The notes under the pieces are model-generated. The model was given only the letters and a program-made list of their open reading frames with translations, was not told where the DNA came from and ran no database searches. A DNA stretch of 42,274 nt from a virus: IMG/VR virus record IMGVR_UViG_3300026549_000138; one strand, written 5' to 3'. The translations under genes were made by a program, and so were the position numbers. The number at the start of each line of letters is the position of its first letter. Position 1 is the first letter of the stretch. Shown here one piece after another: positions 1 through 42,274 of this stretch.

Positions 1-127
1 TCGAGTGCGCCCCGTCTCAGCATTTATTTCTTAATCTTCAAACTTTAATCTTTAACCTTTGCACCCGTCGCAAGACGGGTGCATTAAACAAAAGCAAGAA
101 AGCAAATGGGTAATCAATTGAAATTGG
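1..127. repeat. Terminal direct duplication (identical to 42148-42274); circular-assembly overlap
   Basis: By-eye comparison shows tcgagtgcgccccgtctcagcatttatttctt...gggtaatcaattgaaattgg at both ends. It contains the VR2 3' end, the target stop codon, the hairpin and the avd start. Confidence 0.9.
60..83 (+). promoter_or_regulatory. GC-rich hairpin downstream of VR2 (duplicate copy of 42207-42230); DGR target-recognition cruciform candidate
   Basis: tgcacccgtc-gcaa-gacgggtgca forms a 10-bp perfect stem with a GCAA (GNRA) tetraloop and has no trailing T-tract. Confidence 0.7.
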
Positions 128-504: not shown

Positions 505-593
505 GACAAACCGAGTGTGCAATCCGTAATAAATGGGCCGTGTACCGTCATTCACGGTTAAGAACAAGACAATACGGCACAGATTGGCGAGCC

Positions 594-698
594 ACCGAGT
601 ACAGCGCGACCAACGCATGGAATCTGAACCTCAACAACGGCAACATGAACAACAACACTAAGGCCACGAACACGAATCGAGTGCGCCCCGTCTCAGCA
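594..698 (+). repeat. DGR template repeat (TR), 105 bp, non-coding position between avd and RT
   Basis: It aligns without gaps to 11945-12049 and 42065-42169. It has 37 adenines and 11 Asn codons (9 AAC, 2 AAT) in the VR reading frame. Every mismatch to either VR is at a TR adenine. Confidence 0.93.
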
Positions 699-711
699 CT
701 ATTTACGGACA

Positions 712-1914: not shown

Positions 1915-2065
1915 AGTTGAACCGAAAGACCCGATTACATTGCGCGTTGATGTGATTGATATGGGTTTGCTGCATCTGTTAGAAACGAGATATGTGGTAC
2001 TGATAGAACAACGCGAAAACGATATTGTAATTGAACTTTATACAAAGGAACATGGAGACAGTTAG
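1901..2065 (+). CDS. Hypothetical 54-aa protein overlapping the RT stop (below the ORF-track cutoff)
   Basis: My own translation gives ATG at 1901, MAIIEVEPKDPITLRVDVIDMGLLHLLETRYVVLIEQRENDIVIELYTKEHGDS, stop at 2063-2065. It overlaps the RT 3' end by 14 nt and fills an otherwise non-coding gap. Confidence 0.3.
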   Translation: MAIIEVEPKDPITLRVDVIDMGLLHLLETRYVVLIEQRENDIVIELYTKEHGDS

Positions 2066-2393
2066 CGTTATTGAGATTGTTGCAACCATTATCGGAACAA
2101 TGGGAGGATGGGAGGCCATCAAGTACCTTTTGAACCGAAAGACCAACAAGCGAAAAGAAGAGGCCGAGGCCGATGGTGTGGAATTTGGAGTTTTGCGCGA
2201 CAGCATGGAGTTTTTGCAAAACCAACTCAAAGAGAAAGAGGAAAGGTTTGTCAACCAGACAGACCGATTGCGTAAGTTGCAAGATGATTATTTTGAGTTG
2301 CTGAAAGAAAAACAACGTATTGAATTGGAATTGCAGCGTTTTCGATGTGTGCGCCCTAAGTGCGCCCAGAGAGAACCACAAAACGGATATTAA
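2052..2393 (+). CDS. Putative holin or lysis-associated membrane protein (N-terminal TM helix plus coiled coil)
   Basis: The TM-like segment VSVIEIVATIIGTMGGW is followed by a charged coiled-coil region. It lies immediately upstream of the endolysin. I preferred the ATG at 2052 over the TTG at 2031. Confidence 0.45.
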   Translation: METVSVIEIVATIIGTMGGWEAIKYLLNRKTNKRKEEAEADGVEFGVLRDSMEFLQNQLKEKEERFVNQTDRLRKLQDDYFELLKEKQRIELELQRFRCVRPKCAQREPQNGY

Positions 2394-2404
2394 AAACTGA
2401 AAGT

Positions 2405-2983
2405 ATGGCAAAAGTTGAAAGCATCGTGCCGTTTATCCTGAAATGGGAAACAGGCACAACGGGCATTGGTTTGACCAATGAGCAATTGTTTGAGAAAGCC
2501 AAGTTGAAAGGGTTTGCCAATGACCCCGACGATTTGGGAGGTGCAACCATGTGTGGCGTGACATTGGCCACGTTCACGGAGTATTGCCGTCGGAAAGGCT
2601 ACCCACGGCCAACCATTGTGAGGCTGAAAGCCATTAAATACAAAGAATGGTTGGAAATACTAAAGACCATGTTTTGGGATAAATGGAAAGCCGACCAGAT
2701 TAACAACGAATCCATCGCCCTCATATTGGTTGATTGGGTTTGGGGCAGCGGCAAATATGGCATCACCATCCCACAAAAAGCAATTGGCGTGACAGCCGAC
2801 GGCATTGTTGGCCCCAAGACGATTGCCGCCGTCAATGCCAAAGACCCCAAGCAACTGTTTGACCTCATCAGGAAAGAACGGTTGGCCTACATCGAGAGAA
2901 TTTGCAGAAGCCGACCAACCAATTTGAAGTACAAAAGAGGTTGGTTGAATCGGTTAAACGACATCAAATTTAAGGGAGTATGA
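2405..2983 (+). CDS. Endolysin, GH108-type muramidase with C-terminal peptidoglycan-binding (PG_binding_3-like) domain
   Basis: ILKWETG...NDPDDLGGATMCGVT matches the GH108 signature. ADGIVGPKTIAAVN is PG-binding-like. The ATG at 2405 (MAKVES) avoids overlap with the upstream ORF. Confidence 0.8.
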   Translation: MAKVESIVPFILKWETGTTGIGLTNEQLFEKAKLKGFANDPDDLGGATMCGVTLATFTEYCRRKGYPRPTIVRLKAIKYKEWLEILKTMFWDKWKADQINNESIALILVDWVWGSGKYGITIPQKAIGVTADGIVGPKTIAAVNAKDPKQLFDLIRKERLAYIERICRSRPTNLKYKRGWLNRLNDIKFKGV

Positions 2984-3492
2984 AGCAGCTTATTTTCATT
3001 ATTCTGGCCGCGCTCATGCTGATTGGGTGCAGAGCCAAACAGACTGTCATTAAGGAGAACACCACGGCCAGCCTCATTGACACCACACACACCGTGGCCG
3101 ACACGATGAGCGCAGTATCAAATTACACCGACACCACCACGGCCACCCAGCACGTCGAGCAATCGGCCACGATCGAGTTTGTGGATGGTGGCGGTACGGT
3201 CAGCATTGACACGGCAGGAAACGTGACCATGCAGGGCGTGAAATCCATTAAAGGCATGGGCAAGGCCGACGTTACCATCAAAAACGGAGTGGCAGAGCGT
3301 GACAGCATATCAGCCAGCCACACCGACCAGGCAAACGGCATCAATAAGAACGAGAGCAAGCAGCGAGAGACCGAGGAAAAGGTAAGTAAGGCCGTGCAAT
3401 GGTACGAAAGGCCGTTAATATGGATTGGCTCATTGTGCTGCATTGCCGTGTTGCTTTATATCCTATTTATATACATCAAGGCTAAACATTGA
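2980..3492 (+). CDS. Lipoprotein with C-terminal TM anchor; unimolecular-spanin-like lysis protein
   Basis: The N-terminal signal with lipobox is MKQLIFIILAALMLIGC. The C-terminal TM is PLIWIGSLCCIAVLLYILFIYI. Its start overlaps the endolysin stop (ATGA). Confidence 0.55.
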   Translation: MKQLIFIILAALMLIGCRAKQTVIKENTTASLIDTTHTVADTMSAVSNYTDTTTATQHVEQSATIEFVDGGGTVSIDTAGNVTMQGVKSIKGMGKADVTIKNGVAERDSISASHTDQANGINKNESKQRETEEKVSKAVQWYERPLIWIGSLCCIAVLLYILFIYIKAKH

Positions 3493-3532
3493 TTTTGTAC
3501 ATATCTGTAAAAGTGCGACGAAAGTTGTTGAG

Positions 3533-3568
3533 ACCGTGCCAACCCGTGAGGGCCAGCACGGTTTTTTA
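3533..3568 (+). terminator. Intrinsic terminator at the end of the lysis operon, between convergent genes
   Basis: The accgtgc...gcacggt 7-bp stem has an inner ccc-gtga-ggg stem-loop and is followed by T6. It overlaps the integrase stop codon. Confidence 0.6.
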
Positions 3569-4789
3569 TTTGCCTAACAGATAGTCAATTACACGTCGGT
3601 TTGCGGCATCTATTTTGTCGAGGGAAAATTTGATGTAAACGCCCGTGATGGCAGAGCCGTATTTGTGGCCAAGGGCCTCAGATATGGTGTCTTTTGGTAT
3701 ATCCAATTCAGCGGCATACGTCGCCCATGAGTAACGCGCCCAATACGACGTGATTTGTGGCTCAATCGGCTGCATCATGGGCAAATGGTTGTCGGTGTAC
3801 TGAGGTTTGCCGTTGGCATCCGTCTGGATTGGCCCCATGCGCCTGAGTGCTTTATTGAGGTGCTGCATATAGTCTTTATAACTTTTGTATCTGTCAAAGC
3901 AGCGTAGGAGGTGTTTTTGGCCACGGTACTTTTCAATGATTGCCGCCGCCTCATCTTCAACTTTGATGGAATAGAGTTTGCCCGTTTTTGCACGTCGGTA
4001 CTCAATGCGGCCATTCACGTAATTGTCAGAGGTGAGGCCACCCATATCTACCATGTTAATGCCGATAAGGTAAAACGAGAGTAAGAACATATCCCGATGC
4101 TCCAAGTCAGATTTGCCCAGAGGCAGGGCCAGGAGTTCACGGAACTTTGCCAATGGCAGCACCCTCATGGCCGTTTCTTCCTTTGGTATGCGGAAATTGC
4201 GGAATGGGTAGTTTTGCGTTATCCCATCATCCACGGCAAAGTTTATGACGTTGCGGAGATTGCGTAAGTGCATTGCCCGGCTATTGACTGACAATTTATC
4301 CATCGAAGCGTAAAAGCCCGTGAGCCACGTTTTGTTTATCGTCTCAAAACGCACGGCATTGGCATCCCCACAGAAAGCATTTACTTTGTTCAATGTTTGC
4401 TCAAAGAGTGTGCGAGTGCCGCCCGTTTTCGTATCAATGACCTTTTGGAACATTGCCCCCAGAGTTGGCACACCGATGGTTGGTGCTGACAAATCAAGGT
4501 GGGTGAGCATTTCCCGAAGTTGGGCCGGTGTCAGTTTGTCGTATTGCCCCATCATGCGCAACTCCAAAATGCGGTTTGATACCTGAGTGAGCAAGGCCGA
4601 CAGTACACCATTGACCCGTTTGGCATTTTTGCCCACACAGCGTTTGGCCGTGGCATCCCATTCATCGGGTGCAAGAAATATGCCCGTGGCCAGATAGAGG
4701 TTAGTGCCGTAGCCGACACAGATTTGGACGGGAAACGTGCCATCTTTTAATGCCCGTCGAGTATCGAGGCGAAGATTTGATTTTGCCAT
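3566..4789 (-). CDS. int: Tyrosine recombinase / phage integrase (Bacteroidota type)
   Basis: 407 aa. C-terminal catalytic-domain motifs are YRRAKTGK, WARYSWATYA and LGHKYGSAITGVYIKF. The N-terminal region is arm-binding/SAM-like. Confidence 0.88.
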   Translation of the reverse strand: MAKSNLRLDTRRALKDGTFPVQICVGYGTNLYLATGIFLAPDEWDATAKRCVGKNAKRVNGVLSALLTQVSNRILELRMMGQYDKLTPAQLREMLTHLDLSAPTIGVPTLGAMFQKVIDTKTGGTRTLFEQTLNKVNAFCGDANAVRFETINKTWLTGFYASMDKLSVNSRAMHLRNLRNVINFAVDDGITQNYPFRNFRIPKEETAMRVLPLAKFRELLALPLGKSDLEHRDMFLLSFYLIGINMVDMGGLTSDNYVNGRIEYRRAKTGKLYSIKVEDEAAAIIEKYRGQKHLLRCFDRYKSYKDYMQHLNKALRRMGPIQTDANGKPQYTDNHLPMMQPIEPQITSYWARYSWATYAAELDIPKDTISEALGHKYGSAITGVYIKFSLDKIDAANRRVIDYLLGK

Positions 4790-5087
4790 ATTGCTGATTA
4801 TTATCTGTAAATTTGCTTAATCGTTGCTGAAATTTGCGCCAAAGTTATACAAAATCTACCACTTAAACGGCCACCAAAGGCCGATTTTCGGTGTAAGGCA
4901 TTGATTTTTAACAATTGGCCATTTCGCCACGTTTCTTTAATATACTTTGAAAATCAGCACGTTACGGCATTATTACCCTATTGGCCAGCCACCAAAGACT
5001 TTATGCCTCATTATATAAATAATGTTTTTCTTTAGTGCTGATTTTCAGTTAATTACAAAGAAGTGAATTTTATTTGCTGAAAATTTG
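4790..5087. other. Candidate attP region (non-coding, AT-rich, repeat-dense, next to int)
   Basis: Repeats are ttgctgaaatttgc (4824-4837) / ttgctgaaaatttgc (5074-5088), the inverted pair tgaaaatcagcac (4948-4960) / gtgctgattttca (5035-5047), and ccaccaaag twice (4871-4879, 4989-4997). Confidence 0.45.
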
Positions 5088-5540
5088 CTATTGCATCATA
5101 TCTGGCACGCCATCCCCATTTGCGTCGATAGGTGTTGTTTGAACCTTAAACTTTTGACCTTTGCCAGCCATTTCGATTGTCATGGTTTCAGAGTTTATGC
5201 CGAGCGTTTTGCCCGTAAGTTGGCCAGAGTAATCGGCGATAAATTCCGTGGCATCGGCATTGAACGTGGCCGACATCTGGAATGTGCTGTTTTGGTAGGT
5301 GTATGTTGGCCACGCCCCAGCAGAACCAAAACCGAGGACAACAATTTGAGAGCCATTTTTCTGATAAGCGACCATTTCAGTACATTGCCCGTCCGATACA
5401 TAAACGCCCAGCATTTGTGTATCAGTAGCAGCCACGAAAAAGCCACCAGGAATGATTACGGCATCGGGTGCAGTATCATTGTCAGTTGAGCAGGAGAAAA
5501 GCCCACAGAGGGCAAGGAAAAGGGCAAAGCGGTGTTTCAT
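5088..5540 (-). CDS. Lipoprotein co-transcribed with the repressor (candidate lysogenic-conversion or superinfection-exclusion protein)
   Basis: The signal and lipobox are MKHRFALFLALCGLFSC, followed by the acidic stretch STDNDTAPD. Its start overlaps the repressor stop (ATGA). Confidence 0.7.
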   Translation of the reverse strand: MKHRFALFLALCGLFSCSTDNDTAPDAVIIPGGFFVAATDTQMLGVYVSDGQCTEMVAYQKNGSQIVVLGFGSAGAWPTYTYQNSTFQMSATFNADATEFIADYSGQLTGKTLGINSETMTIEMAGKGQKFKVQTTPIDANGDGVPDMMQ

Positions 5541-5905
5541 TTGGCTGCAAGTATCTGGAGTAACTGATTTATCTGTTTGTCTTTTTCTTCAAGCAGCGAC
5601 ACAAGCCGATTGATCGTGTCACCTGCATTGATTTGTGAGTTGTTATTGTTGGCAATGTTTTCACTGCCAACGCGCCCATCAGCGGCATACATTGAGCCAA
5701 TCCCACGCATGAGCCATTCAGCACTCACAGATGGGTACGTTTCCAAGAACTTTGAGAGCAGCCCAGCAGACACGCCACGGTTGCCATTTAAGATGTTGCC
5801 GAATGTGCCAGCGTCCACGCCTAACTCACGGCTCATTTCTGCCTTACTTTTGCCACTTTGTGCCCAAAAGTCATTCATTTTGCCAATAATTTCTTTTTCA
5901 GTCAT
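5537..5905 (-). CDS. XRE/CI-like helix-turn-helix repressor
   Basis: The HTH is SKAEMSRELGVDAGTFGNILNGNRGVS, followed by the AEWLMRGIG motif. It is divergent from the early operon. Confidence 0.75.
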   Translation of the reverse strand: MTEKEIIGKMNDFWAQSGKSKAEMSRELGVDAGTFGNILNGNRGVSAGLLSKFLETYPSVSAEWLMRGIGSMYAADGRVGSENIANNNNSQINAGDTINRLVSLLEEKDKQINQLLQILAAK

Positions 5906-6197
5906 TTTGCCGATAATTTGTTGTTACACAATACTTTATGTGGCATTTGACGGCATGGCGGCAAAAATTTCTTTCACGTCTTAACACAATTTAACAGGCA
6001 AAATGAATGCTATTATCTTCAAAATGCCTATCTTTGCACCCAGATATGAGTGAGTAACGAAGTATCAGGCGCACAAAGAAAGCCGTCGAGCCTATCAATG
6101 CACAACCGTTCAAATCCATTGCAAAGATACGACGGTTTTTCTTTTCCGCCAAAGATATGAGTGAGTAAATAAGTAATTTTAACTAAAACGTCGCATT
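5906..6197. promoter_or_regulatory. Lysis/lysogeny switch region with repeats and Bacteroidota -7 boxes (TAnnTTTG) on both strands
   Basis: tatctttg lies on the plus strand at 6029-6036, and its complement caaagata at 6122-6129 and 6150-6157. A 22-bp direct repeat agatatgagtgagtaa+nnaagta occurs at 6042-6064 and 6153-6175. ttttgccRataattt occurs twice, at 5878-5892 and 5905-5919. Confidence 0.45.
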
Positions 6198-11368: not shown

Positions 11369-12061
11369 ATGACAGAGAATCAGAAACTAAAGATGGAACT
11401 TTTGAAAGAGTTTGCCATCAGTGACGAACCAAAGAGCATCGAGGTTTGCCGTGAAATGTACAAATTCATGGTAGAAGATGAGGCCCCGACCCCATCAATA
11501 CCGACAAATGGCAAACACCCAAAGGATGGTGTTTACTACATTTGCGACGATGAGAATAAGACCATTGTGCCGTATAAGGCCACGTTGACACCCCCAGAGG
11601 ATGCAATGGGTGTTTTGTTGGTGCAGGGTGAGCGCAGTATCATTATTGCACTCCGAGATTGCAACGATGGCGAGGAAACGACGTTGACCAAGCAGAAAGA
11701 CCCGTCGAACCTCAAAGGCAACTACATTGACACCTGCATTGATGCCGTGGCCGATTGGAACGGCCAGAAGAACACCGAACATCTAAAGGCCGTCGGACTG
11801 TCTGACAATATCAGCCTGAGCGATGGTTGGTACATTCCAAGCATGGGTGAAATGCTGTTTATCTTCACACATCGTAAGGAGGTCAATGCAGCATTGAAGA
11901 AAGCAGGTGGCCAGCCCATTGCCGATGATTGGTATTGGACTTCGACCGAGTACAGCGCGACCCACGCATGGCCTCTGTACCTCAACTACGGCAGCATGTA
12001 CTACACCACTAAGGCCACGGGCACGCATCGAGTGCGCCCCGTCTCAGCATTTATTTCTTAA
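11369..12061 (+). CDS. DGR target protein 1 (DUF1566/FGE-sulfatase-type C-type-lectin-like fold), VR1 at the C-terminus
   Basis: The C-terminus is GWYIPSMGEMLFIF...WYWTSTEYSATHAWPLYLNYGSMYYTTKATGTHRVRPVSAFIS. It is paralogous over most of its length to the 41417-42181 product. Confidence 0.88.
   Translation: MTENQKLKMELLKEFAISDEPKSIEVCREMYKFMVEDEAPTPSIPTNGKHPKDGVYYICDDENKTIVPYKATLTPPEDAMGVLLVQGERSIIIALRDCNDGEETTLTKQKDPSNLKGNYIDTCIDAVADWNGQKNTEHLKAVGLSDNISLSDGWYIPSMGEMLFIFTHRKEVNAALKKAGGQPIADDWYWTSTEYSATHAWPLYLNYGSMYYTTKATGTHRVRPVSAFIS
11945..12049 (+). repeat. DGR variable repeat VR1
   Basis: It is 105 bp with 12 mismatches to the TR, all at TR adenines (TR index 19, 28, 29, 34, 43, 50, 55, 58, 62, 76, 77, 82). 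The 3' segment cgagtgcgccccgtctcagca is invariant. Confidence 0.93.
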
Positions 12062-28792: not shown

Positions 28793-31700
28793 ATGGCAAA
28801 AGACGTAAAATTTAATATAAAGCTGCAAGTTGACGGCAAAGATGTGGTTGTGCAAGCCTCAACCAACGTCAAGCAGTTGGCCAACGATTTAGGGTTGGTG
28901 CATGACCGCGTGACAGCCGCCGACAAAGCGTTTATGAAATGGACGCAGAGCGTTGTTGCCATCGGTGCTGTTACTAACTCCATCCAACAAATATCTGGCG
29001 TACTCAACACCCTCACTGAGGACAGCCGTACATTTGGCGCAGCCATGAAAGCCGCCAACACTATGGCTGGCAAGGATGCCGAGGGATTTGCGCAACTGAA
29101 AGACCAGGTTGCCGAACTGAGTAAGTCAATACCAATGGCCCGTGATGAGTTGGCCAATGGTTTGTATCAAGTCATTTCAAATGGCGTTCCCGAAGATAAT
29201 TGGATTGATTACCTAAGAGCATCGAGCCGTGCCGCCGTCGGTGGTATTGCCGATGTTGGCGAGGTGGTCAAAGTCACTTCGACTGTCATTAAAAACTATG
29301 GTTTGGAATGGTCAGCCGCCCAAGATATTCAGGACAAGATACAGTTGACCGCCAAGAACGGTGTGACATCGTTTGAGCAGTTAGCCGCCGCCCTGCCATC
29401 CGTCACGGGCCAGGCAGCGCAGTTGGGCGTGTCATTCACGGAAATGCTGGCCGTGATGAGTACGTTGACGGGCGTAACGGGTAACACGTCAGAGGTGGCC
29501 ACGCAGCTTGCAAGTGTGCTGACCGCATTAACAAAGGAGAGCAGCAAGAGCCAGAAGATGGCCGAGGAAATGGGCATATCGTTCAATGCTGCATCCATCC
29601 AAGCCGCAGGTGGTTTGCGTAACTATCTGCAAGAGTTAGACCGTACCGTTACGGCATACGCACAGAAGTCCGGCCAACTCAAAGAATCCATTTACAGCAA
29701 ACTTTTCGGACGTGCCGAGGCATTGCGTTTGGTCAATGGCCTAACGGGAGAAATGGCCGCTAAGTTTGACGAAAACATTGCCGCGCTGGATAACAGTGCA
29801 GGAACGATTGACAAGGCATTTGAGACGATGAGCAGCACGGGAGCGGCCACAACTCAGATGCTAAAGAATCAGTTTGCCGCCGTTACCGACCTCATTGCAG
29901 GGATCGTGGGAGGCATACAGCCATATTTGAATTTTACCGCCCAATTGGGCATGACCATATTAAGCGTTACCAGCCTCACAAAAGCCATCAAGGGCCTCAA
30001 CATTGCACACGCATTGATGATTGCCCGTACCAAGGCCGGAGGTGTGGCGATGCTGGCATTTGGTTTGAGGGCAAGCCGTGCCGCCGCTTTTGCCCGTGTG
30101 TTTAGTGCTGCATTGAAAGGTGTGGCATATCAGGCCACAGCCACTAAGATTGCAATACGTGGTTTGATGATGGCAACGGGCGTTGGTGCGCTCATTGCAG
30201 GTGTCACATTTGCCGTTGAAAAACTCACGGGAGCATTTGAAGATGCCAGTGATGCCGCCGAAGATACGGCAGAGAAGATTGACCGTGTGGCCGATACAGC
30301 CCAGCAAGCCCAAGATGCTTTTGCCAATAAGCAGTCAGAGGTGTACAGCAGTCTAATGACAAAGTACACCCAATTGCAGACGGCATGGAAAGCACTGTCA
30401 ACGGCTCATGCCAAAGCCCAATGGATTAAGGACAACAAAAAGGCATTTGAGGAATTGGGTTTGAAGATACACAGTGCCAAGGATGCCGAAGATACGTTTG
30501 TCGGCAATACCGATGCCGTTGTGGAATCGTTCAAGGCCAGAGCCAAAGCCGCCGCCCGTCTGGCACAACTCACAGAAGAGTACCGAATCCAAATGGATTT
30601 GGCCGATGAGATTGCCCGTGGTGATGAGCAATACCGCCAAGAGAACACCGTGCAGGCAGGTGAGCCTGTACGTAAGGAGGGCGAATTTTACCCGGCTGGC
30701 CATTCAGCCGAGAAAGGCATGGAGTACGTCAACAGCGGTGGCCATTGGGTTTATACTGACAAGGGCGCAGCACAGCACAATGCCAATATCGGCAAAAACC
30801 CCAATCTGCAAAGCAGCCGCGACGCATTGGCAGCATCCCAAGAGCGCAGTAAGAAAATCGAGGGTGACATTGCCGCCGATGCCAAAGCCGCCACGACTAA
30901 GGTTAAACCCACGCCCACCAATACAACCAACACAAAGGGCGACCCCAATAAGGACAAAATCATTGAGGGCGCAAAGAGTTATGCCGACCTTACACACAAC
31001 ATCGGTGTGTATAAGAAGCAGTTGGAGGCAGCAGACCCAGCCAACAAGCAGCTTATTACATCTTTGCGTCAGCAGATTGCCGAGGCTGAGGAAGCAGCAC
31101 AGGCCGCAAAGGATTTGGCCAACGGATGGGATTTGCAGAACCCCGACACGCTGGAAGAGATAGACGAAGCCATCAGCCGCCAGCAGGCGTTGCGAAAAAA
31201 GGCCAATGCCGAGAATCTGCAAGGCATTGATGCCGAGATTAAGCGTTTGCAGGGATTGAAAGCCCAGATGGAGCGCAATGCCAAAGTACCAACACCCATT
31301 GAGCAAATCCACACGTATGAGCAATTGGATGAGGCATTGGCCATCTACAATGACCGCCTAAAGGTGGCCACGGAAGAGGAACGCGCCCAAATCCAAACTC
31401 AGATTATCGAGTTGGAGAGATTGCGTAAGAAATGGGATGCCACATTGGAGGCCATGAAAAAGCCAGGCCCCATTGGTACGCTAAAGACCATTGAGGATTT
31501 AGACGATGCCATTTCCTATTACGGCCAACTCCAAAAACACCAGAGTGCCGATGAAATTGCAGCCACCCAGCAAGTCATACAAGCATTGGAAGCCAAGAAA
31601 AAGGCAATGCAGAGGCCGATTGAGTTGGCAGGAATGCAAAAGGAAATTGACGAAATCAACGCCCTAAGTGGCCGTGAGTTCAAGGTGAAGATTAAGGGCA

Positions 31701-32512
31701 TGGGATTTGATGCCCTCACTGACAAAATCCGCGAACTGAAAAAGGCCCTCAACGATATTGACAACCCACCGACCGAGAATCAGCGAAAGCAGATTGAGGG
31801 CATGATTGCCACATACGAGGAATGGCGCAGAAAGTCAATAAGTGCATTTGACACAGCCCGTAACGGATGGGATGGTATCAAGGGCATTGGCAACTCCATT
31901 CAGAGCATTACGGACGCGCTGGAGGGAAACGGCAACGCATGGCAAAAGACTGTTGCACTCGTTGATGCTTTCATCGGTTTGTATGAGGGAATCCAAGCCG
32001 TCATTGGTATCATCAATTTGTTATCGGCTGCATCGTCAGCCCATGCCGTGACCAAAGGTGTTGAGGCAGGTGCAGAGACCACAGAGGCAGCGACCAGGGA
32101 GGCAGCGACCGCCGCCAATGTTGCTGCATCCGTGGCCCAGATTGCGGCAAACAAATTGGAAACAGCATCGTGGGCAGAGTTGGCCGCAGCCATGACATTT
32201 GCCGCCCACGCTTACATACCATTTGCAGGTACGGCCATTGCATCCGGCATGATTGCCGCCCAGCAAGCCATGATTATTGCCGCAGGCATACCGAAGTACG
32301 AAAAGGGTGCTTTGGCATTTGGCCCCACGTTGGGCATATTCGGTGAGTATGCAGGTGCAAGCCACAACCCCGAAGTCGTGGCCCCGTTAGACAAATTGCG
32401 CTCCATGATTGAGCCGTCAAGCGGTTTCAGCGGAGAGGTGGAGTTTGTCATTAAGGGCAGACGTTTGGTTGGTGTGTTGAACAAGGAAAACAAAATCAAT
32501 AAACGCACGTAA
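28793..32512 (+). CDS. Tape measure protein
   Basis: 1239 aa, helical and coiled-coil, with hydrophobic Ala/Gly-rich segments, located after the G/GT chaperone. Confidence 0.9.
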   Translation: MAKDVKFNIKLQVDGKDVVVQASTNVKQLANDLGLVHDRVTAADKAFMKWTQSVVAIGAVTNSIQQISGVLNTLTEDSRTFGAAMKAANTMAGKDAEGFAQLKDQVAELSKSIPMARDELANGLYQVISNGVPEDNWIDYLRASSRAAVGGIADVGEVVKVTSTVIKNYGLEWSAAQDIQDKIQLTAKNGVTSFEQLAAALPSVTGQAAQLGVSFTEMLAVMSTLTGVTGNTSEVATQLASVLTALTKESSKSQKMAEEMGISFNAASIQAAGGLRNYLQELDRTVTAYAQKSGQLKESIYSKLFGRAEALRLVNGLTGEMAAKFDENIAALDNSAGTIDKAFETMSSTGAATTQMLKNQFAAVTDLIAGIVGGIQPYLNFTAQLGMTILSVTSLTKAIKGLNIAHALMIARTKAGGVAMLAFGLRASRAAAFARVFSAALKGVAYQATATKIAIRGLMMATGVGALIAGVTFAVEKLTGAFEDASDAAEDTAEKIDRVADTAQQAQDAFANKQSEVYSSLMTKYTQLQTAWKALSTAHAKAQWIKDNKKAFEELGLKIHSAKDAEDTFVGNTDAVVESFKARAKAAARLAQLTEEYRIQMDLADEIARGDEQYRQENTVQAGEPVRKEGEFYPAGHSAEKGMEYVNSGGHWVYTDKGAAQHNANIGKNPNLQSSRDALAASQERSKKIEGDIAADAKAATTKVKPTPTNTTNTKGDPNKDKIIEGAKSYADLTHNIGVYKKQLEAADPANKQLITSLRQQIAEAEEAAQAAKDLANGWDLQNPDTLEEIDEAISRQQALRKKANAENLQGIDAEIKRLQGLKAQMERNAKVPTPIEQIHTYEQLDEALAIYNDRLKVATEEERAQIQTQIIELERLRKKWDATLEAMKKPGPIGTLKTIEDLDDAISYYGQLQKHQSADEIAATQQVIQALEAKKKAMQRPIELAGMQKEIDEINALSGREFKVKIKGMGFDALTDKIRELKKALNDIDNPPTENQRKQIEGMIATYEEWRRKSISAFDTARNGWDGIKGIGNSIQSITDALEGNGNAWQKTVALVDAFIGLYEGIQAVIGIINLLSAASSAHAVTKGVEAGAETTEAATREAATAANVAASVAQIAANKLETASWAELAAAMTFAAHAYIPFAGTAIASGMIAAQQAMIIAAGIPKYEKGALAFGPTLGIFGEYAGASHNPEVVAPLDKLRSMIEPSSGFSGEVEFVIKGRRLVGVLNKENKINKRT

Positions 32513-34872: not shown

Positions 34873-36588
34873 ATGGATAAGAAATACACAGCAGTAACCA
34901 CCAACCGCACACCGCGCCCACGCAGTCAGAGATTGCGTGAGCAGGGCATTGGCAGCGTTGCAAGTACCGTGGTGCTGAATGGCGACACGGGAGGCAGCAG
35001 CGTACCATCTGGCGACGGCCACACCCATGCCAACAAATCCGCGCTCGACCAGATAAGCACCGACAGCCAAGGTTATGAGTATCTGACCCGGTACGTTGAG
35101 GTGACAGACCCCGACACGGGCGAGACCTCATTGCAGCAGGTAACGGAAAAGGTCAAAGCCGGATATGCCGACGTTGCCCACGACCTCACACCCGACAGCC
35201 CCGTGCGCCAACAATTCCTGAGCCGTATTGCAGACGATGTGGCGCAGGGTAAAATTACCTTTGAGCAGGGATTGATTGCCGTTGGTATGGCCATATTCCA
35301 AGATGGCGCAGAGTTTGGTGAGTTCGTCAAGTCTTTATATGCTGGCAAGGGCGCAGGTATTGACAAAGACGGCAATGCAGAGTTTGAGAGCGTGAGAGTG
35401 CGCACATACTTTGAGGCCGTTGAGTTAATCATCAACCGACTGTCAGCCATCGAGGGCGACCAATTGTTGACTGAGGCCGACACAATCGAGAGAGTTGTGG
35501 ATTTGGGCGACAATTGTTATGGCCTATATTTGCACCCAAAATGGGAGGGATATTTTACCGCCCAAGCCGTCGGCAATGTGCTGAAAGGCATTATCAATAA
35601 TTTGGGTGCAGTGGCATTGGGCATGACGGGCCAGGGAAACGCCGCCATGTACACCTCATGGATGAGGGTAAACAGCGTAAACCCCACGCTCAATTACATT
35701 GAGGTGACGATGTACCCCGACGATGAGACCCCAGCCGGAAAGAACTTTTTGCCGTGCGAGTTGATGAAGATTGCCCGATGGGGAAACCAGACCGACAAGA
35801 CACGCCAAAGCTGCATTTATCTGTCAAGCACGGAGGGGCGCATTGTGCATTTGAATGGCGTGACAAAGCCCATCATTGACCAATCCAACTATGCAGCCAC
35901 CTTTGGCACGATACCAGAGTTTGTTAAGCACATGACCGACCGCGAGGGAAACCCGTTACCATTGCGCGACAATCTGGATTACGTTTACATCGGTGGCCTC
36001 ATCGTGCAGGACGTGATAAGGGTGGATTTCCAAGGCAAGCCGATTGTTACATACGTCGATCGTGGCCAATGGTATGCCGCCGCCAATTATTATTGCGAGG
36101 CCAAGAACCCCACGACGGGCGTATGGGAAACAAGCGATGTGTGGTACATGGGTTGCAAATATCGGTGTTGCAAGAATCTGACAAAGACCGCCCCGGCATG
36201 GAACAATACCGATTGGGCAATGGTTGAGGGCAACCCAGATTTTACGGTTGAGTTTGCCGATACTGATTACCTTTTCGACCCCGACCGATTTGCCGTGACA
36301 TTGACCATCATTGCCAAACTCCACAACATTGACGTGACCGCTGACATTCTGGATGCCGATGTGATATGGACGCGATACAGCGAAGATGATAAGGGCGTTG
36401 AGCGAGTGGCCAGCGATAACGCATGGGCATTGAAACGGGCAGGTGCAGGAAAATCCATCAATCTGACAGCCGCCGACGTGGATTTCAACGGGTATGTGCC
36501 AAGGGTGTTAAGGTACACGGCCACGGTGACATTGCGCGACGGTATGGGAGAGCCAGCGGCCACGGAGAGCGTTAGTTTTGAGTTTTAA
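34873..36588 (+). CDS. Tail tip/baseplate or fibre-associated structural protein
   Basis: 571 aa. The GDGHTHANKSALDQIS motif is seen in phage tail fibre and spike N-terminal regions. Confidence 0.5.
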   Translation: MDKKYTAVTTNRTPRPRSQRLREQGIGSVASTVVLNGDTGGSSVPSGDGHTHANKSALDQISTDSQGYEYLTRYVEVTDPDTGETSLQQVTEKVKAGYADVAHDLTPDSPVRQQFLSRIADDVAQGKITFEQGLIAVGMAIFQDGAEFGEFVKSLYAGKGAGIDKDGNAEFESVRVRTYFEAVELIINRLSAIEGDQLLTEADTIERVVDLGDNCYGLYLHPKWEGYFTAQAVGNVLKGIINNLGAVALGMTGQGNAAMYTSWMRVNSVNPTLNYIEVTMYPDDETPAGKNFLPCELMKIARWGNQTDKTRQSCIYLSSTEGRIVHLNGVTKPIIDQSNYAATFGTIPEFVKHMTDREGNPLPLRDNLDYVYIGGLIVQDVIRVDFQGKPIVTYVDRGQWYAAANYYCEAKNPTTGVWETSDVWYMGCKYRCCKNLTKTAPAWNNTDWAMVEGNPDFTVEFADTDYLFDPDRFAVTLTIIAKLHNIDVTADILDADVIWTRYSEDDKGVERVASDNAWALKRAGAGKSINLTAADVDFNGYVPRVLRYTATVTLRDGMGEPAATESVSFEF

Positions 36589-36607
36589 CATATAAGCAGC
36601 TGAATAT

Positions 36608-37768
36608 ATGAAAACAAGAAGATTTGATTTTAACTTTAAGCCGTTGCAGGTTAGCCGCACGATTGCGGTTGATGGCAGCGTACCGGCCCGACAGACGTAT
36701 GATGCCGAATCGGGATTGTTTACGCCTGATTACACCCTCACGCCCCTCATTATCCAACCGCGAATCGGGCGCATGGATAAGGACGAGATTTTGACATCGG
36801 GCAGCATTAACCATCTTTTGGCCAATGTGCGTTGGTATGAGATTATTGATGGTACTAAGACCCTCATTGAGACTACCAATGCCGATTATGAGATTACGGC
36901 AAGCGGAAAAGATGCCGGACGTATTAAGGTAAAAAAGAACGCAGAGCCTCAGCACCCGATTACGCTGGAGTTTTATGCCGAGTACACTGACAGCCGTACA
37001 GGGCAGTTGTACGTCATTCAAGACACATTCCCCATCATGTGCAGGAACTCCACGGCATTGCCTGAGTTGTTTTTGGATGCCGCCGACCAAACCATTTATG
37101 ACCCCCTCATTGACGTGGCCGACCAGACCGTGACCGCCAGCCTTAAATTAGGTACAAAGGAGTGTGCAGTGGATAACCGCCTTTTCGTGTGGGAACTGTT
37201 ACGCGACGATGGCACATGGTCAGTGGTAGGCGCAGAGCCAGCATTGGATTATTGCATTGACGTGGCCGCCGATGGCCTCAGTGCTGTTGTGCATCGTGAC
37301 CTCATGGGCGAATCATTGGCGTTGCGTTGCAGGGCGAAATATGACCCAGAGGGCAACCCAGCAACCATTACGCTCAACGATGGAAGCCCCTGCAAGGTGG
37401 TGGAGTTTGTGCGTCGAATCCACAAGTATGATTTTGACATCGTAGATTGCCCCGTGAATATCCCCAGCGGAATGTTGGCTATTGCCCCACGCGCATCTAT
37501 TTATGACACTCACGGAGAGATTACCAACCCCGAAAGGGAATTGATCGTACTTTGGTACGTGGCCACGAATAAGGCCAGCGGCGCATTGTCGTACAGCCTC
37601 ATTGCCCACGGCCAAGAGCCGGATATGTTACCCACGTCAGCCATGAACGCCCAATTTGGTGCAGTGTATGGCATTGACGTTAAGGACATCGGCCCCGTGG
37701 CTGCATGGGAAGATGGCGACGGCAAGTTGTTCGAAGATGGCGATGGAAATATTATTTTAATTCACTAA
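36608..37768 (+). CDS. Hypothetical tail-module protein
   Basis: It is a 386-aa ORF in the tail module. Confidence 0.5.
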   Translation: MKTRRFDFNFKPLQVSRTIAVDGSVPARQTYDAESGLFTPDYTLTPLIIQPRIGRMDKDEILTSGSINHLLANVRWYEIIDGTKTLIETTNADYEITASGKDAGRIKVKKNAEPQHPITLEFYAEYTDSRTGQLYVIQDTFPIMCRNSTALPELFLDAADQTIYDPLIDVADQTVTASLKLGTKECAVDNRLFVWELLRDDGTWSVVGAEPALDYCIDVAADGLSAVVHRDLMGESLALRCRAKYDPEGNPATITLNDGSPCKVVEFVRRIHKYDFDIVDCPVNIPSGMLAIAPRASIYDTHGEITNPERELIVLWYVATNKASGALSYSLIAHGQEPDMLPTSAMNAQFGAVYGIDVKDIGPVAAWEDGDGKLFEDGDGNIILIH

Positions 37769-37782
37769 AAAATATCGAGATT

Positions 37783-38244
37783 ATGGCACGTTACATTAAA
37801 GCAAATCCGAAAGTTGCAAGTTATTTGCATCTGGAAAATGACCGTCTGAAACTGAAAGATGGTAATTACATTCTTTGGCAGGGCGATATGACCGCATTTG
37901 GCCCATTGCCTATGCTCAACGAGACACTAACGCAGATTGGCGGCATTGCCCTCATGCCCCATGAGGCCAAGCAAGAGCAGGATGGCACGTACAACCGACC
38001 TTTGCCCGTGGCCACCGATGAGCGTTTTATCATGGATGAGGCCAAGGCAGACCCCGAACATCAGACAGACGATGAGGCAGAAGCCGTGACCGATGAAAAC
38101 GGAGAGGGCCAGGCCCCAGCAGCCGCCAGCACCGAAGAGCCGACAGACGATGAGGGCGATGGCGATACCGACGAAGAGCCAGCCGAAGCGGAAGCCGAGG
38201 CCGAGAGTGAGACAACCGAATCTGAAAACCCCGAAACAGAATAA
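37783..38244 (+). CDS. Hypothetical protein with a highly acidic C-terminal tail
   Basis: I preferred the ATG at 37783 (MARYIKANPK). The C-terminus is TDDEGDGDTDEEPAEAEAEAESETTESENPETE. Confidence 0.5.
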   Translation: MARYIKANPKVASYLHLENDRLKLKDGNYILWQGDMTAFGPLPMLNETLTQIGGIALMPHEAKQEQDGTYNRPLPVATDERFIMDEAKADPEHQTDDEAEAVTDENGEGQAPAAASTEEPTDDEGDGDTDEEPAEAEAEAESETTESENPETE

Positions 38245-38247
38245 GCC

Positions 38248-39306
38248 ATGAGCAGTGCATCAACAACAAGAACCATCAAATTTGTGTCTAAGGCTGGAAC
38301 GTATGCCGCCGTTATCATGTGTCCTGATGGTGACATATACCAGGAATGGGAGGGCAGCACCAGCCAAGTAACGGGTATCTACCCCAATTTTGAGGTAACG
38401 AAACCCAAACTCTATTTCGTATGCACGTCGAGCCGTGTGGCCGAGGGTGTTGCAACACCCGATGCCATCAATTTCTATTTCAACGGCACACTCATTCAGT
38501 GGAATGGCGATACCAGCACGGGAACATTTGCAGGGCTGTTTAAGAAGATTGCCCCGGCAGGTGACAACCTTTATTATGGTATTCAGATTGTCAAGAACAT
38601 TGCACAGGCCGCAGGATTTGCGCCAGCCGTCATTAAGATGGTGGCCACCGTGTCATACGGCACTCAGACTGACCAAATCGAAGCATCGTACAATATTCCC
38701 ATCCAACAGGCCACGGGCAACGGAATCCGCGTGACGATCGTAAGCCCCGACGGAAAGAACTTTGTCATTAACGACAAGGGGAGCAGCTGTCAGTTAAAGG
38801 CAATGGCCTATCAGAAAGGCACGGAACTCACGGCCAATCTGTCATACGTGTGGGAGCAGATGCAGGCCAGCGGATGGGTAGTGTTGACGGGTAAGACAAC
38901 CCAGACCATTACCGTGCAGGACACCGACATCAACAGTTACGGTGAATTTCGCGTTACCGTCAACCGTGGAAGCGGAACGAGTGCGGAGGAATTGGGCAAG
39001 GACATTCAGGGCGTTATGGATGCCAGCGACCCATTGCAGGTTGACCCACACCCCAGCCCCGAAGATGAGGCCATCACAGAGGACACCAGCGGCAACGGCA
39101 CTGTCACGTACACGCCCGTTGTGGTCAAGCGAGGAACAAGCACCAAGGCGTTAGACACCACGTTTTATTTCGTGGTCAAGGATGCCGTGGGCAATTACCT
39201 CAACCCCGGCAGCATGGGAACGGCCAAAGCCACAGAGACCGTGACCAGAGCGCAGTGTGTTCAGGCAGGTGGCGACGTATCAATTACAATCACATCAAAG
39301 GACTAA
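38248..39306 (+). CDS. Hypothetical virion/tail-fibre-module protein (beta-rich)
   Basis: It is a 352-aa ORF in the tail module. Confidence 0.5.
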   Translation: MSSASTTRTIKFVSKAGTYAAVIMCPDGDIYQEWEGSTSQVTGIYPNFEVTKPKLYFVCTSSRVAEGVATPDAINFYFNGTLIQWNGDTSTGTFAGLFKKIAPAGDNLYYGIQIVKNIAQAAGFAPAVIKMVATVSYGTQTDQIEASYNIPIQQATGNGIRVTIVSPDGKNFVINDKGSSCQLKAMAYQKGTELTANLSYVWEQMQASGWVVLTGKTTQTITVQDTDINSYGEFRVTVNRGSGTSAEELGKDIQGVMDASDPLQVDPHPSPEDEAITEDTSGNGTVTYTPVVVKRGTSTKALDTTFYFVVKDAVGNYLNPGSMGTAKATETVTRAQCVQAGGDVSITITSKD

Positions 39307-39309
39307 GTT

Positions 39310-41391
39310 ATGCCATCCGTTACCAGAATCGTTAAGTTTATCCGCAAGGGTGAGAAAGGCGACAATGGCCGCAGTGTGTTGGGCGTTGATGTTGAGTATG
39401 CACAAAGCACCTCAAACACCACCGCCCCCACAAGCGGATGGAGTACCGATGCCCCTGCATGGATTGATGGGCAATACATCTGGAGCAGAACACGCATTGA
39501 CTATTCGGAGGGCGACCCCGAATATACCGACCCCGTTTGCATAACGGGAGGCAAGGGAAGCACGGGCAATGGCGTTGTGAATATCACAGAAGAGTATTAC
39601 CGAAGCACAAGCGCGTACAGTCTCAGTGGTGGCAGTTGGTCAACGTCACGCCCGACGTGGATTAGTGGTTATTATATCTGGACGCGCTCACACATCGTTT
39701 TGACTGACCGCGATTTTTACACCACGGCCATTTGCGTGACAGGTGCAAGAGGTAGCAACGGCACAACTTATTACACATGGATTAAGTATGCCGACAGCCT
39801 GAGCAGTTTGGGTTATCCTGCATCCATGTATGACACACCAACCGAAAACACAGCGTATATTGGCATTGCCAAGAATAAAACCACATCAACCGAGGGCACA
39901 GACCCCAGCGTTTACACATGGGCGAAGATTAAAGGTGAAGATGGGGCCGATGGTACGTCATTCACGGCAAAGGGTAGCGCAGACGGGCATTTTGCATCAA
40001 TCGCCGATTATTCCGCTGCATCAAAGACTAACGGCCATTATTATTTGGTTGATATTCCTGATACAACCACATATCCAGATGGCGCGTGTGTAATGATGCC
40101 GACAAACAGAGGCGATGCAACGTATTATTGCGAGGATGGCGATGCCTACACAACCGCTGATAAGCATTTGTGGGTTAAGGACGGTGGTTATTGGATTGAT
40201 TTAGGAGAAATCCAAGGCCCAAAGGGTGACAAAGGCGACAAGGGCGACAAGGGCGACCGTGGAAACGTCGGCCCCTCATTGCGCGGCCCTCAGAATTGGG
40301 CAGATGTGGCCGTTGGTTACAACTTCTACCAAGGAGCGGAAACAGAGCCATACAAAGATGTTGTTATCTGGAATGGCAACTATTACTCATGTGTGAAGAG
40401 CCACACCAAGACCGCCAACAATTACCCGTTGAGCGATGCCGACAATACAAACCACTATTGGCAGACCACGGACAAAGTGGAGATTGTGGCCACACAGATA
40501 TTGTTGGCCACGTATGCAGTCATTAAGAATTTGGGTGTTGAGGCCATCGAAATGAAGAACGCCGCCGGAAACACGGTGTTTCTTGCAAAGGATGGTGTTG
40601 TGACCTGCCAGACGGGAACATTCAACAACATTACTGTACAGAGTGGCAAGATTGCTGGATTTACTATCAGCGGCAACGGATTGTCAAATGACCCATTCAC
40701 CAATGATGCTTACATCATTTTCAGAAATGACAGCAAAAAGGCATTTGCAGGAATAGGTGGTAATGTACTCCCGACCTCATCGGGATTGAGAGCCGTGGCA
40801 CGGTTTGAGAATGAGGACACAAGCGATCAATGGGGAATTGGTGCTAACTATGCGCTCATATTATCGGCAAAGAATGGTGGCCGAAATTATGCCTTTAAGG
40901 GTAGTGGCAACGGCATATTAGATGGCTGGATTGCTGGCTATCAGTTCTATAAATATACGATTGCAGCCGCCAACACTATCTATGAGGGTGGCGCAGTATT
41001 GAATATGAACAAAGCCAACCAATTCATTGTACATTGCGATTATGGTAATTCTGGCGTATGTTTGCCACGATTGAGTGCAGTTTGTGAAGCGTTGGGAATC
41101 AGCCAAGGCACAAATTTCATGGTTAAAATTACCATCATATCCGATTTGAGCAATAACAATAATTGGTCAGTTTACGGACGTAACAGGAACAAAAGCAGTT
41201 CAAACACATACCCGTGGAACACCGACCAATTACCGTTAATTACTCATTGGGATGGTAGCAATTGGAACTCAGTTGCAATGGGTAGCGGTGACAGCCTCAC
41301 CATCATGTTAGTATATGATAGCAGCCGTTCACAACTCATTGACAATTTCACTACTAAGTACACAGCGAGAATTATTAACAGACAAGATTAA
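39310..41391 (+). CDS. Tail fibre protein with a short collagen-like Gly-X-Y repeat
   Basis: GPKGDKGDKGDKGDRGNVGPS is encoded at 40216-40278. The 693-aa protein lies immediately upstream of the DGR target. Confidence 0.7.
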   Translation: MPSVTRIVKFIRKGEKGDNGRSVLGVDVEYAQSTSNTTAPTSGWSTDAPAWIDGQYIWSRTRIDYSEGDPEYTDPVCITGGKGSTGNGVVNITEEYYRSTSAYSLSGGSWSTSRPTWISGYYIWTRSHIVLTDRDFYTTAICVTGARGSNGTTYYTWIKYADSLSSLGYPASMYDTPTENTAYIGIAKNKTTSTEGTDPSVYTWAKIKGEDGADGTSFTAKGSADGHFASIADYSAASKTNGHYYLVDIPDTTTYPDGACVMMPTNRGDATYYCEDGDAYTTADKHLWVKDGGYWIDLGEIQGPKGDKGDKGDKGDRGNVGPSLRGPQNWADVAVGYNFYQGAETEPYKDVVIWNGNYYSCVKSHTKTANNYPLSDADNTNHYWQTTDKVEIVATQILLATYAVIKNLGVEAIEMKNAAGNTVFLAKDGVVTCQTGTFNNITVQSGKIAGFTISGNGLSNDPFTNDAYIIFRNDSKKAFAGIGGNVLPTSSGLRAVARFENEDTSDQWGIGANYALILSAKNGGRNYAFKGSGNGILDGWIAGYQFYKYTIAAANTIYEGGAVLNMNKANQFIVHCDYGNSGVCLPRLSAVCEALGISQGTNFMVKITIISDLSNNNNWSVYGRNRNKSSSNTYPWNTDQLPLITHWDGSNWNSVAMGSGDSLTIMLVYDSSRSQLIDNFTTKYTARIINRQD

Positions 41392-41416
41392 GTTTAACAA
41401 TTAAAAAAATGCAGTT

Positions 41417-42181
41417 ATGGCAAAACAGACAAAGAAACTGACAGCCCAAACAACTGTTACGACTGTCACATCGGCACAGAAATTTCCAATGACTGATGCC
41501 AACGGCAATGTAACCCTGATTACATTGGCCAATCTGAAAGCCGCTTTAATGGGTGGCCTCAACCTCAATTCGCTGGAGGATGGCGTGTTTATCATGTGCC
41601 ATCGTAAGCAAGACGATTACCCCATCATGTACAAACCACACAAGTGGACGGCACAGCAAAACGCCGGAGAGGTGGCCGACGGTGTTGTGGTAGTCGAGGG
41701 TGGCCATGTGTTAGTCGTGGCCCCGACGGAAAGCGCAACCAAACTTAATTGGGGCAGTGCCAACGTGGCAGGTGGCGGTGTGACTACCAGCAACCGCGAA
41801 ACCGCTTACAGCGATTTTGCAGGTAAGGCGAACACGGCCAGCCAAATCACCCATACCGAAATGAGCGGTGAGGGCTATGCCCCCGGCTTCTGCCATGCTT
41901 ACAGCCGCGTGAACGCCAACGGCAAGGGTTTGACCGCTGGCAAATGGTGGTTGCCATCGTTGGGCGAAATGATGATGATTTATGCCAACATGACAAAAAT
42001 CAATTATGCTTTGTCGCTCATTGAGGGTGCAACGCAGTTGGTGGAAGATGCCTATTGGACTTCGACCGAGTACAGCGCGGCCAACGCATGGCTTCTGAAC
42101 CTCAACTACGGCGGCATGTACTACTACACTAAGGCCGCGAACACGTATCGAGTGCGCCCCGTCTCAGCATTTATTTCTTAA
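41417..42181 (+). CDS. DGR target protein 2 (DUF1566/FGE-type C-type-lectin-like fold), VR2 at the C-terminus; probable receptor-binding protein
   Basis: The C-terminus is KWWLPSLGEMMMIY...AYWTSTEYSAANAWLLNLNYGGMYYYTKAANTYRVRPVSAFIS. It is the last gene of the tail-fibre module and, via the circular junction, lies directly upstream of avd. Confidence 0.9.
   Translation: MAKQTKKLTAQTTVTTVTSAQKFPMTDANGNVTLITLANLKAALMGGLNLNSLEDGVFIMCHRKQDDYPIMYKPHKWTAQQNAGEVADGVVVVEGGHVLVVAPTESATKLNWGSANVAGGGVTTSNRETAYSDFAGKANTASQITHTEMSGEGYAPGFCHAYSRVNANGKGLTAGKWWLPSLGEMMMIYANMTKINYALSLIEGATQLVEDAYWTSTEYSAANAWLLNLNYGGMYYYTKAANTYRVRPVSAFIS
42065..42169 (+). repeat. DGR variable repeat VR2
   Basis: It is 105 bp with 11 mismatches to the TR, all at TR adenines (TR index 16, 28, 29, 43, 49, 50, 55, 58, 61, 73, 82). 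Confidence 0.93.
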
Positions 42182-42206
42182 TCTTCAAACTTTAATCTTT
42201 AACCTT

Positions 42207-42230
42207 TGCACCCGTCGCAAGACGGGTGCA
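42207..42230 (+). promoter_or_regulatory. GC-rich hairpin downstream of VR2; DGR target-recognition cruciform candidate
   Basis: tgcacccgtc-gcaa-gacgggtgca lies 25 nt after the stop codon. Confidence 0.7.
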
Positions 42231-42274
42231 TTAAACAAAAGCAAGAAAGCAAATGGGTAATCAATTGAAATTGG

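Follow-up and report, generated by a model that had tools for sequence, protein, structure and literature searches.

The window, a virus sequence of 42,274 nucleotides (IMG/VR record IMGVR_UViG_3300026549_000138), carries the parts of a DGR at its two ends. On the left are avd (accessory variability determinant, 132 aa, 106..504), the template repeat TR (594..698) and the DGR reverse transcriptase gene (RT, 393 aa from ATG, 733..1914). On the right, a 254-aa gene (DGR target gene 2, 41417..42181) holds the variable repeat VR2 (42065..42169) and is followed by a presumed recognition region and a hairpin. A second DGR target gene of the Lcl_C type (230 aa, 11369..12061), with its own repeat VR1 (11945-12049), lies further inside. 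All of these features are on the plus strand.

The avd product matches Pfam bAvd with 82.8 bits against a cutoff of 40 (E 2.9e-23) and is 62% identical to the Avd of Bacuni F1, a phage of Bacteroides uniformis; it also matches NCBIfam DivGenRetAVD, below that model's cutoff. TR contains 37 adenines and 11 AAY codons. The RT gene starts 35 nt downstream of the TR end, and a TTG at 712 is an alternative start. Its product matches RVT_1 (E 6.6e-17) and is 64.6% identical to the Bacuni F1 RT; in NCBIfam it reaches no DGR-RT model and gives only sub-threshold matches to group II intron, retron and Drt models. Taken together, the locus holds an RT beside a TR, TR/VR pairs that differ only at adenines, an Avd and 3′ target-site signals, which are the features used to recognize a DGR.

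Circular junction and prophage state

In a self-comparison of the window, bases 1-127 are exactly identical to bases 42148-42274. A k=127 assembler working on a circular or concatemeric molecule leaves an overlap of 127 nt, and we read the repeat at 1..127, to which no strand is assigned, as an assembly overlap that marks the circular junction. Given this overlap, the unique sequence amounts to 42,147 bp and the window is a circle cut open; read from the sequence in this way, the genome is a 42,147-bp circle.

As a substitute for junction-spanning reads, the junction was checked by rotating the window (36000..42147 followed by 1..6000) and aligning it to three independently assembled relatives, namely two metagenome contigs from two other assemblies (L001 and L002) and one contig of 78.7 kb from the isolate Prevotella sp. 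P3-122 (L003). The rotated window is colinear through the junction in all three, at 89-94% identity (93.9% over 6,972 nt for L003), and gene calls on L001 and L002 give the fibre (693 aa), the Lcl_C protein (254 aa), bAvd, RVT_1, amidase and integrase. The order across the junction is fibre, 254-aa target with VR2, hairpin, avd, TR and RT, unbroken in the three relatives. An earlier note on this DNA had proposed that the target and avd meet across a circular junction, in the canonical order target(VR2)-hairpin-avd-TR-RT, and the exact end overlap and the contiguity of L001-L003 bear this out.

It is hardly credible that the adjacency of target and avd is an assembly artefact, produced either by a mis-join through the ~50-nt sequence common to VR1, VR2 and TR or by the terminal repeats of a linear genome. 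The contig does end inside sequence that occurs three times in the genome, but the exact sequence common to VR1, VR2 and TR is far shorter than the 127-nt overlap, three independent assemblies including an isolate genome cross the junction at the identities given above, and the order is identical in Bacuni F1. True terminal repeats of 127 nt that part the target from avd were rejected, given that the prophage and the other contigs run through the junction without a break.

An integrase gene is present in the window. L003 is homologous to the window up to about window position 5010, just beyond the integrase, and a LacI-family regulator gene comes next, so that the element is an integrated prophage in this cultured Prevotella. 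The cassette is contiguous in the integrated state as well (P3-122 prophage, L003). A search for tRNAs found none in the window or at the prophage end. That the phage is temperate and has a Bacteroidota host, as suggested earlier, agrees both with the integrase of the window and with the 94%-identical prophage integrated in Prevotella sp. P3-122.

Variable repeats and 3′ target-site signals

VR2 covers 35 codons of the target gene (aa 217-251). An ungapped comparison of VR2 (42065-42169) with TR (594-698) gives 11 mismatches, and the TR base is an adenine at every one of them (11/11). TR is 100% identical among the window, L001, L002 and L003, while VR2 differs in each of them; the VR2 copies of L001-L003 have 14-15 mismatches to TR, 13-15 of which are at TR adenines. 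The same adenine pattern is seen in the more distant L005, L007 and Bacuni F1 against their own TRs, and six related loci have 13-17 TR/VR mismatches each, nearly all at TR adenines.

On the protein level, the nine most variable columns among 26 target homologues (72-93% identity) all correspond to AAY codons of TR. Mean entropy in this set is 2.67 bits for the AAY codons, compared with 0.08 for adenine-free VR codons and 0.53 for the rest of the protein. The closest target homologue (P0001) differs at 17 residues, 16 of them at TR-adenine codons. Variability confined in this way to AAY codons is the footprint that would be expected of active mutagenic retrohoming under selection for the scaffold, and the 254-aa gene is almost certainly a live DGR target in a canonical cassette. 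We rejected the possibility that VR2 is a decayed copy and VR1 the sole live target, on the basis of the adenine-only differences, the intact hairpin and the hypervariability in the population.

The second target gene is located in the replication module, between the DNA polymerase and methyltransferase genes. All 12 mismatches of VR1 to TR are at TR adenines, and in 80 homologues of the VR1 target the 11 AAY codons coincide exactly with the 11 columns of highest variability. The earlier note implied that the VR2 gene is the single cognate target, which does not hold, given that VR1 is equally diversified and has a hairpin of its own (12080-12101).

Downstream signals are present at both targets. 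The presumed IMH-type 3′ recognition region of VR2 (42148..42200) consists of the GC-rich end common to TR (to 42169), which in VR and TR alike reads …CGAGTGCGCCCCGTCTCAGCA, and then of a 31-nt AT-rich stretch. This stretch is identical to the VR1 flank (12050-12080) and is absent after TR, where the sequence diverges past position 698. It is followed by a target-site hairpin or cruciform (42207..42230, duplicated at 60-83) with a perfect 10-bp GC-rich stem (TGCACCCGTC/GACGGGTGCA) and the loop GCAA, for which dG is -14 kcal/mol and z is -4.0 against shuffles. The VR1 hairpin has a 9-bp stem and the loop GAAA (z = -2.9), and no comparable hairpin was found after the TR of the window. About 20 related loci have a perfect hairpin of 7-10 bp, placed 32-43 nt past VR and never after TR, and the stem sequences vary between lineages with the pairing retained.

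Retrohoming in Bordetella phage BPP-1 requires a GC-rich stem of 7-10 bp and a 4-nt loop at a variable distance from VR (Guo et al. 2011, PMC3240598). The VR2 and VR1 hairpins both fit this description, and the GCAA loop of the VR2 hairpin deviates from the GRNA consensus (PMC3240598) at its second base. A conserved, covarying hairpin with an off-consensus loop may be a new detail.

The target protein and its probable role

The 254-aa target is made up of a portable N-terminal module of ~53 aa and a probably C-type-lectin-like domain of the Lcl_C/DUF1566 family, contains the motifs WWLPSLGEM, YWTSTEYS and RVRPVSAF, and has 3,611 homologues. Pfam Lcl_C (PF07603, formerly DUF1566) matches aa 107-249 with 36.4 bits against a gathering cutoff of 34.9 and overlaps VR at the C-terminus, in line with the DUF1566-type C-terminus described earlier. 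The accompanying label 'FGE-type' is unsupported, given that FGE-sulfatase (PF03781) gave no Pfam match in the target at E<=0.01 and that no FGE structure is among the Foldseek matches. A profile built from 62 family members matches the C-terminal domain of Legionella Lcl (PDB 8q4e, E 7.7e-6) and, weakly, a Bacteroides ovatus pilus-tip protein (PDB 4eps, E 0.008).

AlphaFold2 models were made of the full-length target and, with a more diverse 62-sequence alignment, of aa 54-254. Both reach medium confidence, with pLDDT 66.5 and pTM 0.66 in the full-length model and pLDDT 72 and pTM 0.76 in that of aa 54-254, and pLDDT in the VR region is below 60. With the full-length model, 8q4e is the only significant PDB match in Foldseek (E 5.7e-4, target-normalised TM 0.57) and the invasin InvE is second (E 0.059). 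With aa 54-254, 8q4e again ranks first, at a level that is not significant (E 0.27); compared with the full-length model, the shorter one thus has a higher pTM and a weaker match to the Lcl C-terminal domain. Mtd, TvpA and FGE are absent from the Foldseek matches of both medium-confidence models. Of the C-type-lectin- or FGE-like fold that had been put forward, the first part receives weak backing, with 8q4e at the top for both models, and the FGE part none. Because the Foldseek support is weak, the C-type-lectin-like assignment is a modest one that relies mainly on the sequence profiles.

The Lcl C-terminal domain is C-type-lectin-like and trimeric (PMC11162425). Its glycan-binding residues K369, K380, K385 and K391 align with target positions 219, 230, 235 and 242, where the TR codons are three AAC and one TAC, and its surface residue D386 aligns with the TR-adenine codon 236 of the target; the Lcl-to-target numbering offset of 236 was checked on R338, R342, F343, E344 and E368. 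The match between Lcl surface residues and TR-adenine codons has a chance p of about 0.06-0.07. The alignment thereby agrees, mildly above chance, with a location of the variable residues on the ligand-binding face, and this mapping of diversified codons onto Lcl ligand-binding residues may be a new detail.

The N-terminal module (aa 1-53, 41417..41575) is a presumed adaptor for attachment to the virion or fibre. It is common to P0264, P0270, P0274 and P0253, proteins in which the N-terminus of ~50 aa matches the target and the C-terminal parts are unrelated. In L038, P0270 closes a syntenic tail module, with no avd or RT behind it, and the VR1 target is without the module. A portable N-terminal adaptor may likewise be a new detail; a conserved attachment part combined with exchangeable heads is typical of host-specificity proteins.

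The tail module itself runs from the tape-measure protein (28793..32512) through four tail proteins and the 693-aa tail fibre (39310..41391) to the 254-aa target as its last gene, and this terminal position is kept in L001-L003, Bacuni F1 and L038. The fibre matches several PHROG tail-fibre families and PHROG host-specificity entries too, and contains a collagen-like repeat (40216-40278) of seven G-X-Y triplets at aa 303-323. With this gene directly upstream, the target does follow a collagen-repeat fibre gene, as had been noticed before. Structural matches of the target in BFVD are headed by a tail fibre protein of 1,417 aa, with E 4e-8 and 30% identity across 199 aligned columns, and also include several phage DUF1566 proteins.

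From the position of the gene, the portable N-terminal module, the tail-fibre structural matches and the Bacuni precedent, we infer a receptor-binding role, and the target is probably the host-binding protein of the tail tip. On the same grounds, with the N-terminal module as anchor and the correlation reported for the Bacuni phages, DGR variation would here act as tropism switching. The best explanation of the whole, which we regard as likely, is a canonical phage DGR with an adjacent target gene that closes the tail module and encodes a host-binding tail-tip adhesin. In such a system, TR RNA would be reverse-transcribed by an RT-Avd complex with adenine-specific errors, and the cDNA would replace VR2, with the IMH-like element and the hairpin as target-site signals. 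The product would be a two-part tail-tip adhesin, in which the N-terminal module of ~50 aa docks to the tail or fibre and a probably trimeric C-type-lectin-like Lcl_C/DUF1566 head shows ~11 fully randomisable residues on its ligand-binding face. Rewriting of these residues would alter which Prevotella surface structure the phage binds.

Two other roles for the VR2 protein were weighed against this. In the first, which is rather unlikely, primary receptor binding would fall to the 693-aa fibre or to some other protein of the tail tip, and the VR2 protein would be an accessory adhesin. Such an adhesin might attach reversibly to capsule or another polysaccharide, or to mucus glycans of the host, and DGR variation would then adjust how efficiently the phage attaches or how well it is retained in its niche, rather than its range of hosts. 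The Lcl C-terminal domain, which is the nearest homologue with a solved structure, uses a charged surface to bind glycosaminoglycans (PMC11162425), a fibre with tail-fibre and host-specificity PHROG matches is encoded immediately upstream, and host outer-membrane mutations also mattered in the Bacuni system (PMC8143477). However, a terminal tail-module gene with an exchangeable head on a conserved N-terminus is the usual signature of a specificity determinant, and Bacuni F1 and F4 have different host strains and most of their SNPs in the VR (18/24; PMC8143477). Far less probable still is that the VR2 protein stays off the virion as a diversified binder that works within or on the cell, be it a lysogen or an infected one, in the way that the VR1 paralogue may do. 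A crude hydropathy check shows no N-terminal signal peptide in either target, and the fold is not restricted to tail genes, given the VR1 paralogue in the replication module. A signal peptide is, however, unnecessary for virion proteins, the VR2 protein has the 50-aa N-terminal module that the VR1 target lacks, proteins with this module hold the terminal tail position, and the best viral structural matches are tail fibre proteins.

The host-binding tail-tip adhesin is hence our preferred role for the VR2 protein. A joint reading of both targets goes further and is speculative, and we give it only a small chance. It would see a 'lollipop' adhesin of the Lcl type (collagen-like stalk and trimeric DUF1566 head) split over two genes, in which the diversified head is a separate cap placed on the fibre by the portable 50-aa adaptor and swappable for unrelated heads in related phages. 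The same TR would rewrite the adaptor-less paralogue of the replication module, which would act away from the virion, for instance on a variable factor of the host. If this were true, one DGR would serve two different binding tasks.

With its two targets, the DGR of the window is a complete and clean example from a temperate Prevotella phage. The target family is very widespread in metagenomes of gut and rumen (more than 3,600 protein clusters), and the activity of the retroelement is indirectly supported at the population level. Few Prevotella phages are available, and this one could be used as a model of host-range change driven by a DGR.

Relation to known systems

Published work on the Bacuni phages has already described this layout, domain class and second target and put forward the tropism hypothesis; the window is a well-supported ordinary case, and current knowledge of DGRs is unchanged by it. 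In Bacteroides uniformis phages Bacuni F1, F2 and F4, the adjacent DGR target is 70% identical in amino acids to the 254-aa target of the window. The order of tail proteins, fibre, ~254-aa DUF1566 target, bAvd, TR, RT, lysis and integrase is the same, VR is again the last 35 codons, and the adjacent target is again accompanied by a second one, which lies in the replication region at a distance of ~11-12 kb. This homology was found by protein-level search, with 50-70% amino acid identity over seven proteins (target 70%, RT 65%, Avd 62%). Together with the common gene order, these identities place the window phage among the Bacuni-like temperate siphophages of Bacteroidales. At the DNA level, megablast found no similarity between the window and the Bacuni phages, and a megablast of the tail region against GenBank phages gave only a 42-nt collagen-repeat match to a mycobacteriophage, which is uninformative.

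The two differ in the fibre, which is 358 aa in Bacuni and 693 aa in the window, with only aa 317-452 common with the Bacuni fibre, and in the host, which is Bacteroides for Bacuni and Prevotella for the window phage. The Bacuni phages were isolated as plaque formers, whereas for the phage type of the window integration into the genome of an isolate is clear. The Prevotella sp. P3-122 prophage, to which the window is ~94% identical in nucleotides over the region compared, has already been named and linked to the Bacuni phages, and its lysin and integrase were reported as non-homologous to theirs (PMC8143477). [quoted passage not shown] 2021, PMC8143477); this evidence on VR and host range is a correlation from three phages (F1, F2 and F4), in which host mutations are also involved (PMC8143477).

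Bordetella phage BPP-1 (mtd-avd-TR-brt) has the same cassette order, with a tail-tip target gene directly upstream of avd, and the same adenine-specific TR/VR differences. Its VR is likewise GC-rich at the 3′ end, next to which comes a VR-specific element, and a GC-rich hairpin with a 4-nt loop lies downstream. The head is of the Mtd class in BPP-1 and of the Lcl_C/DUF1566 class in the window, where the target has no detectable sequence or Foldseek similarity to Mtd. BPP-1 has one target and the window phage two, and the hairpin loop is GAAA in BPP-1, compared with GCAA at 37 nt from the VR end in the VR2 hairpin.

By domain, the target falls in 'category d' of DGR targets (DUF1566/DUF823/Fib_succ_major, CLec2; Wu et al. 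2018, PMC5758913), which includes Legionella LdtA and the Bacteroides pilus-tip protein BACOVA_04982 (PDB 4eps; PMC5758913). As in that category, VR overlaps the DUF1566 motif at the extreme C-terminus of a short protein that consists mostly of this domain. The known examples are cell lipoproteins or pilins, whereas the window target is phage-encoded, lies in a tail module and is without a signal peptide. Legionella pneumophila Lcl (PDB 8q4e; PMC11162425), the best Foldseek match, belongs to the same Pfam family (Lcl_C/DUF1566) and carries a C-type-lectin-like trimeric head on a collagen-like stalk, and its ligand-binding lysines align with diversified codons of the window target. It differs in being a secreted bacterial adhesin without DGR diversification, and its stalk and head form one polypeptide, whereas in the window phage a short collagen-like repeat is located in the preceding gene.

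A second target gene and the sequences behind its variable repeat

The window carries a second DGR target, the gene of a 230-aa Lcl_C protein that occupies, with its hairpin, positions 11369-12101 between the DNA polymerase A and DNA methyltransferase genes. Its variable repeat, VR1 (11945-12049), has 12 mismatches to the template repeat (TR, 594-698), all 12 at TR adenines, and across 80 homologues the hypervariable columns of the protein are precisely the 11 AAY codons. The hairpin has a GAAA loop and lies at 12080-12101. A crude hydropathy check found no signal peptide in this target, and it does not have the N-terminal module seen in the target at the end of the tail genes, which contains the other variable repeat, VR2. 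Between the related Bacteroides uniformis phages Bacuni F1 and F2, the VR equivalent to VR1 differs with the host unchanged (PMC8143477).

A 31-nt AT-rich sequence, TTTATTTCTTAATCTTCAAACTTTAATCTTT, is identical 3' of VR2 (42170-42200) and VR1 (12050-12080), and is absent after the TR. Both target genes end within it, so that it includes their final codons and stop, and it probably represents the portion of the IMH, the 3' recognition element of the VR, that is specific to VRs. In about 20 related loci (among L001-L037) a hairpin follows 32-43 nt past each VR. Its stem changes in sequence with pairing kept (stem variants among relatives are TGCACCCGTC, GATACGGC, GTACCCGGC, TGGTGCGGC and GTCCTCGAC), and its loops are mostly of 4 nt (GGTA, GAAA, GCAA, GTTA, GATA), several of them not matching GRNA, the published loop consensus.

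A portable N-terminal module and the spread of target homologues

The N-terminus of the VR2 target is a portable module of ~50 aa (41417-41575), which also starts proteins 321-586 aa long whose C-termini are unrelated to one another. Among these, one is the product of the final gene of a syntenic tail module with no DGR behind it (contig L038, 8001-9044), and P0269 contains tandem repeats of a related motif. Close target homologues are also found on contigs assigned to MAGs of Elusimicrobia, Saccharibacteria, Eubacteriales, Oribacterium and Staphylococcus; several of these contigs are ~42 kb and hence phage-sized. These contigs (L004, L009, L013, L016, L017, L019, L020 and L034) are most likely mis-binned phage sequences and no evidence for such hosts.

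Probable integration site region

Homology to the prophage-bearing contig of the isolate Prevotella sp. P3-122 (L003, 11748-12542) stops at about window position 5010, just past the integrase gene (3566..4789, minus strand), and the next gene in the isolate encodes a LacI-family regulator. The attP site is therefore probably in this region (about 4790-5090). The interval holds an inverted repeat (4933-4960 / 5035-5062); no tRNA was found at the P3-122 prophage/host junction.

Reverse transcriptase and tail fibre

The reverse transcriptase (733-1914) has the motif IGNLFAQ, with alanine where DGR reverse transcriptases usually have serine (...SQ).

The 693-aa fibre (39310-41391) preceding the VR2 target is mosaic in composition. 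Bacuni F1 and L038 have much shorter fibres (358 aa and 266 aa), and these share with it only aa 317-473, a stretch that takes in some of the collagen-like repeat; towards its N- and C-termini the matches are to other PHROG families.
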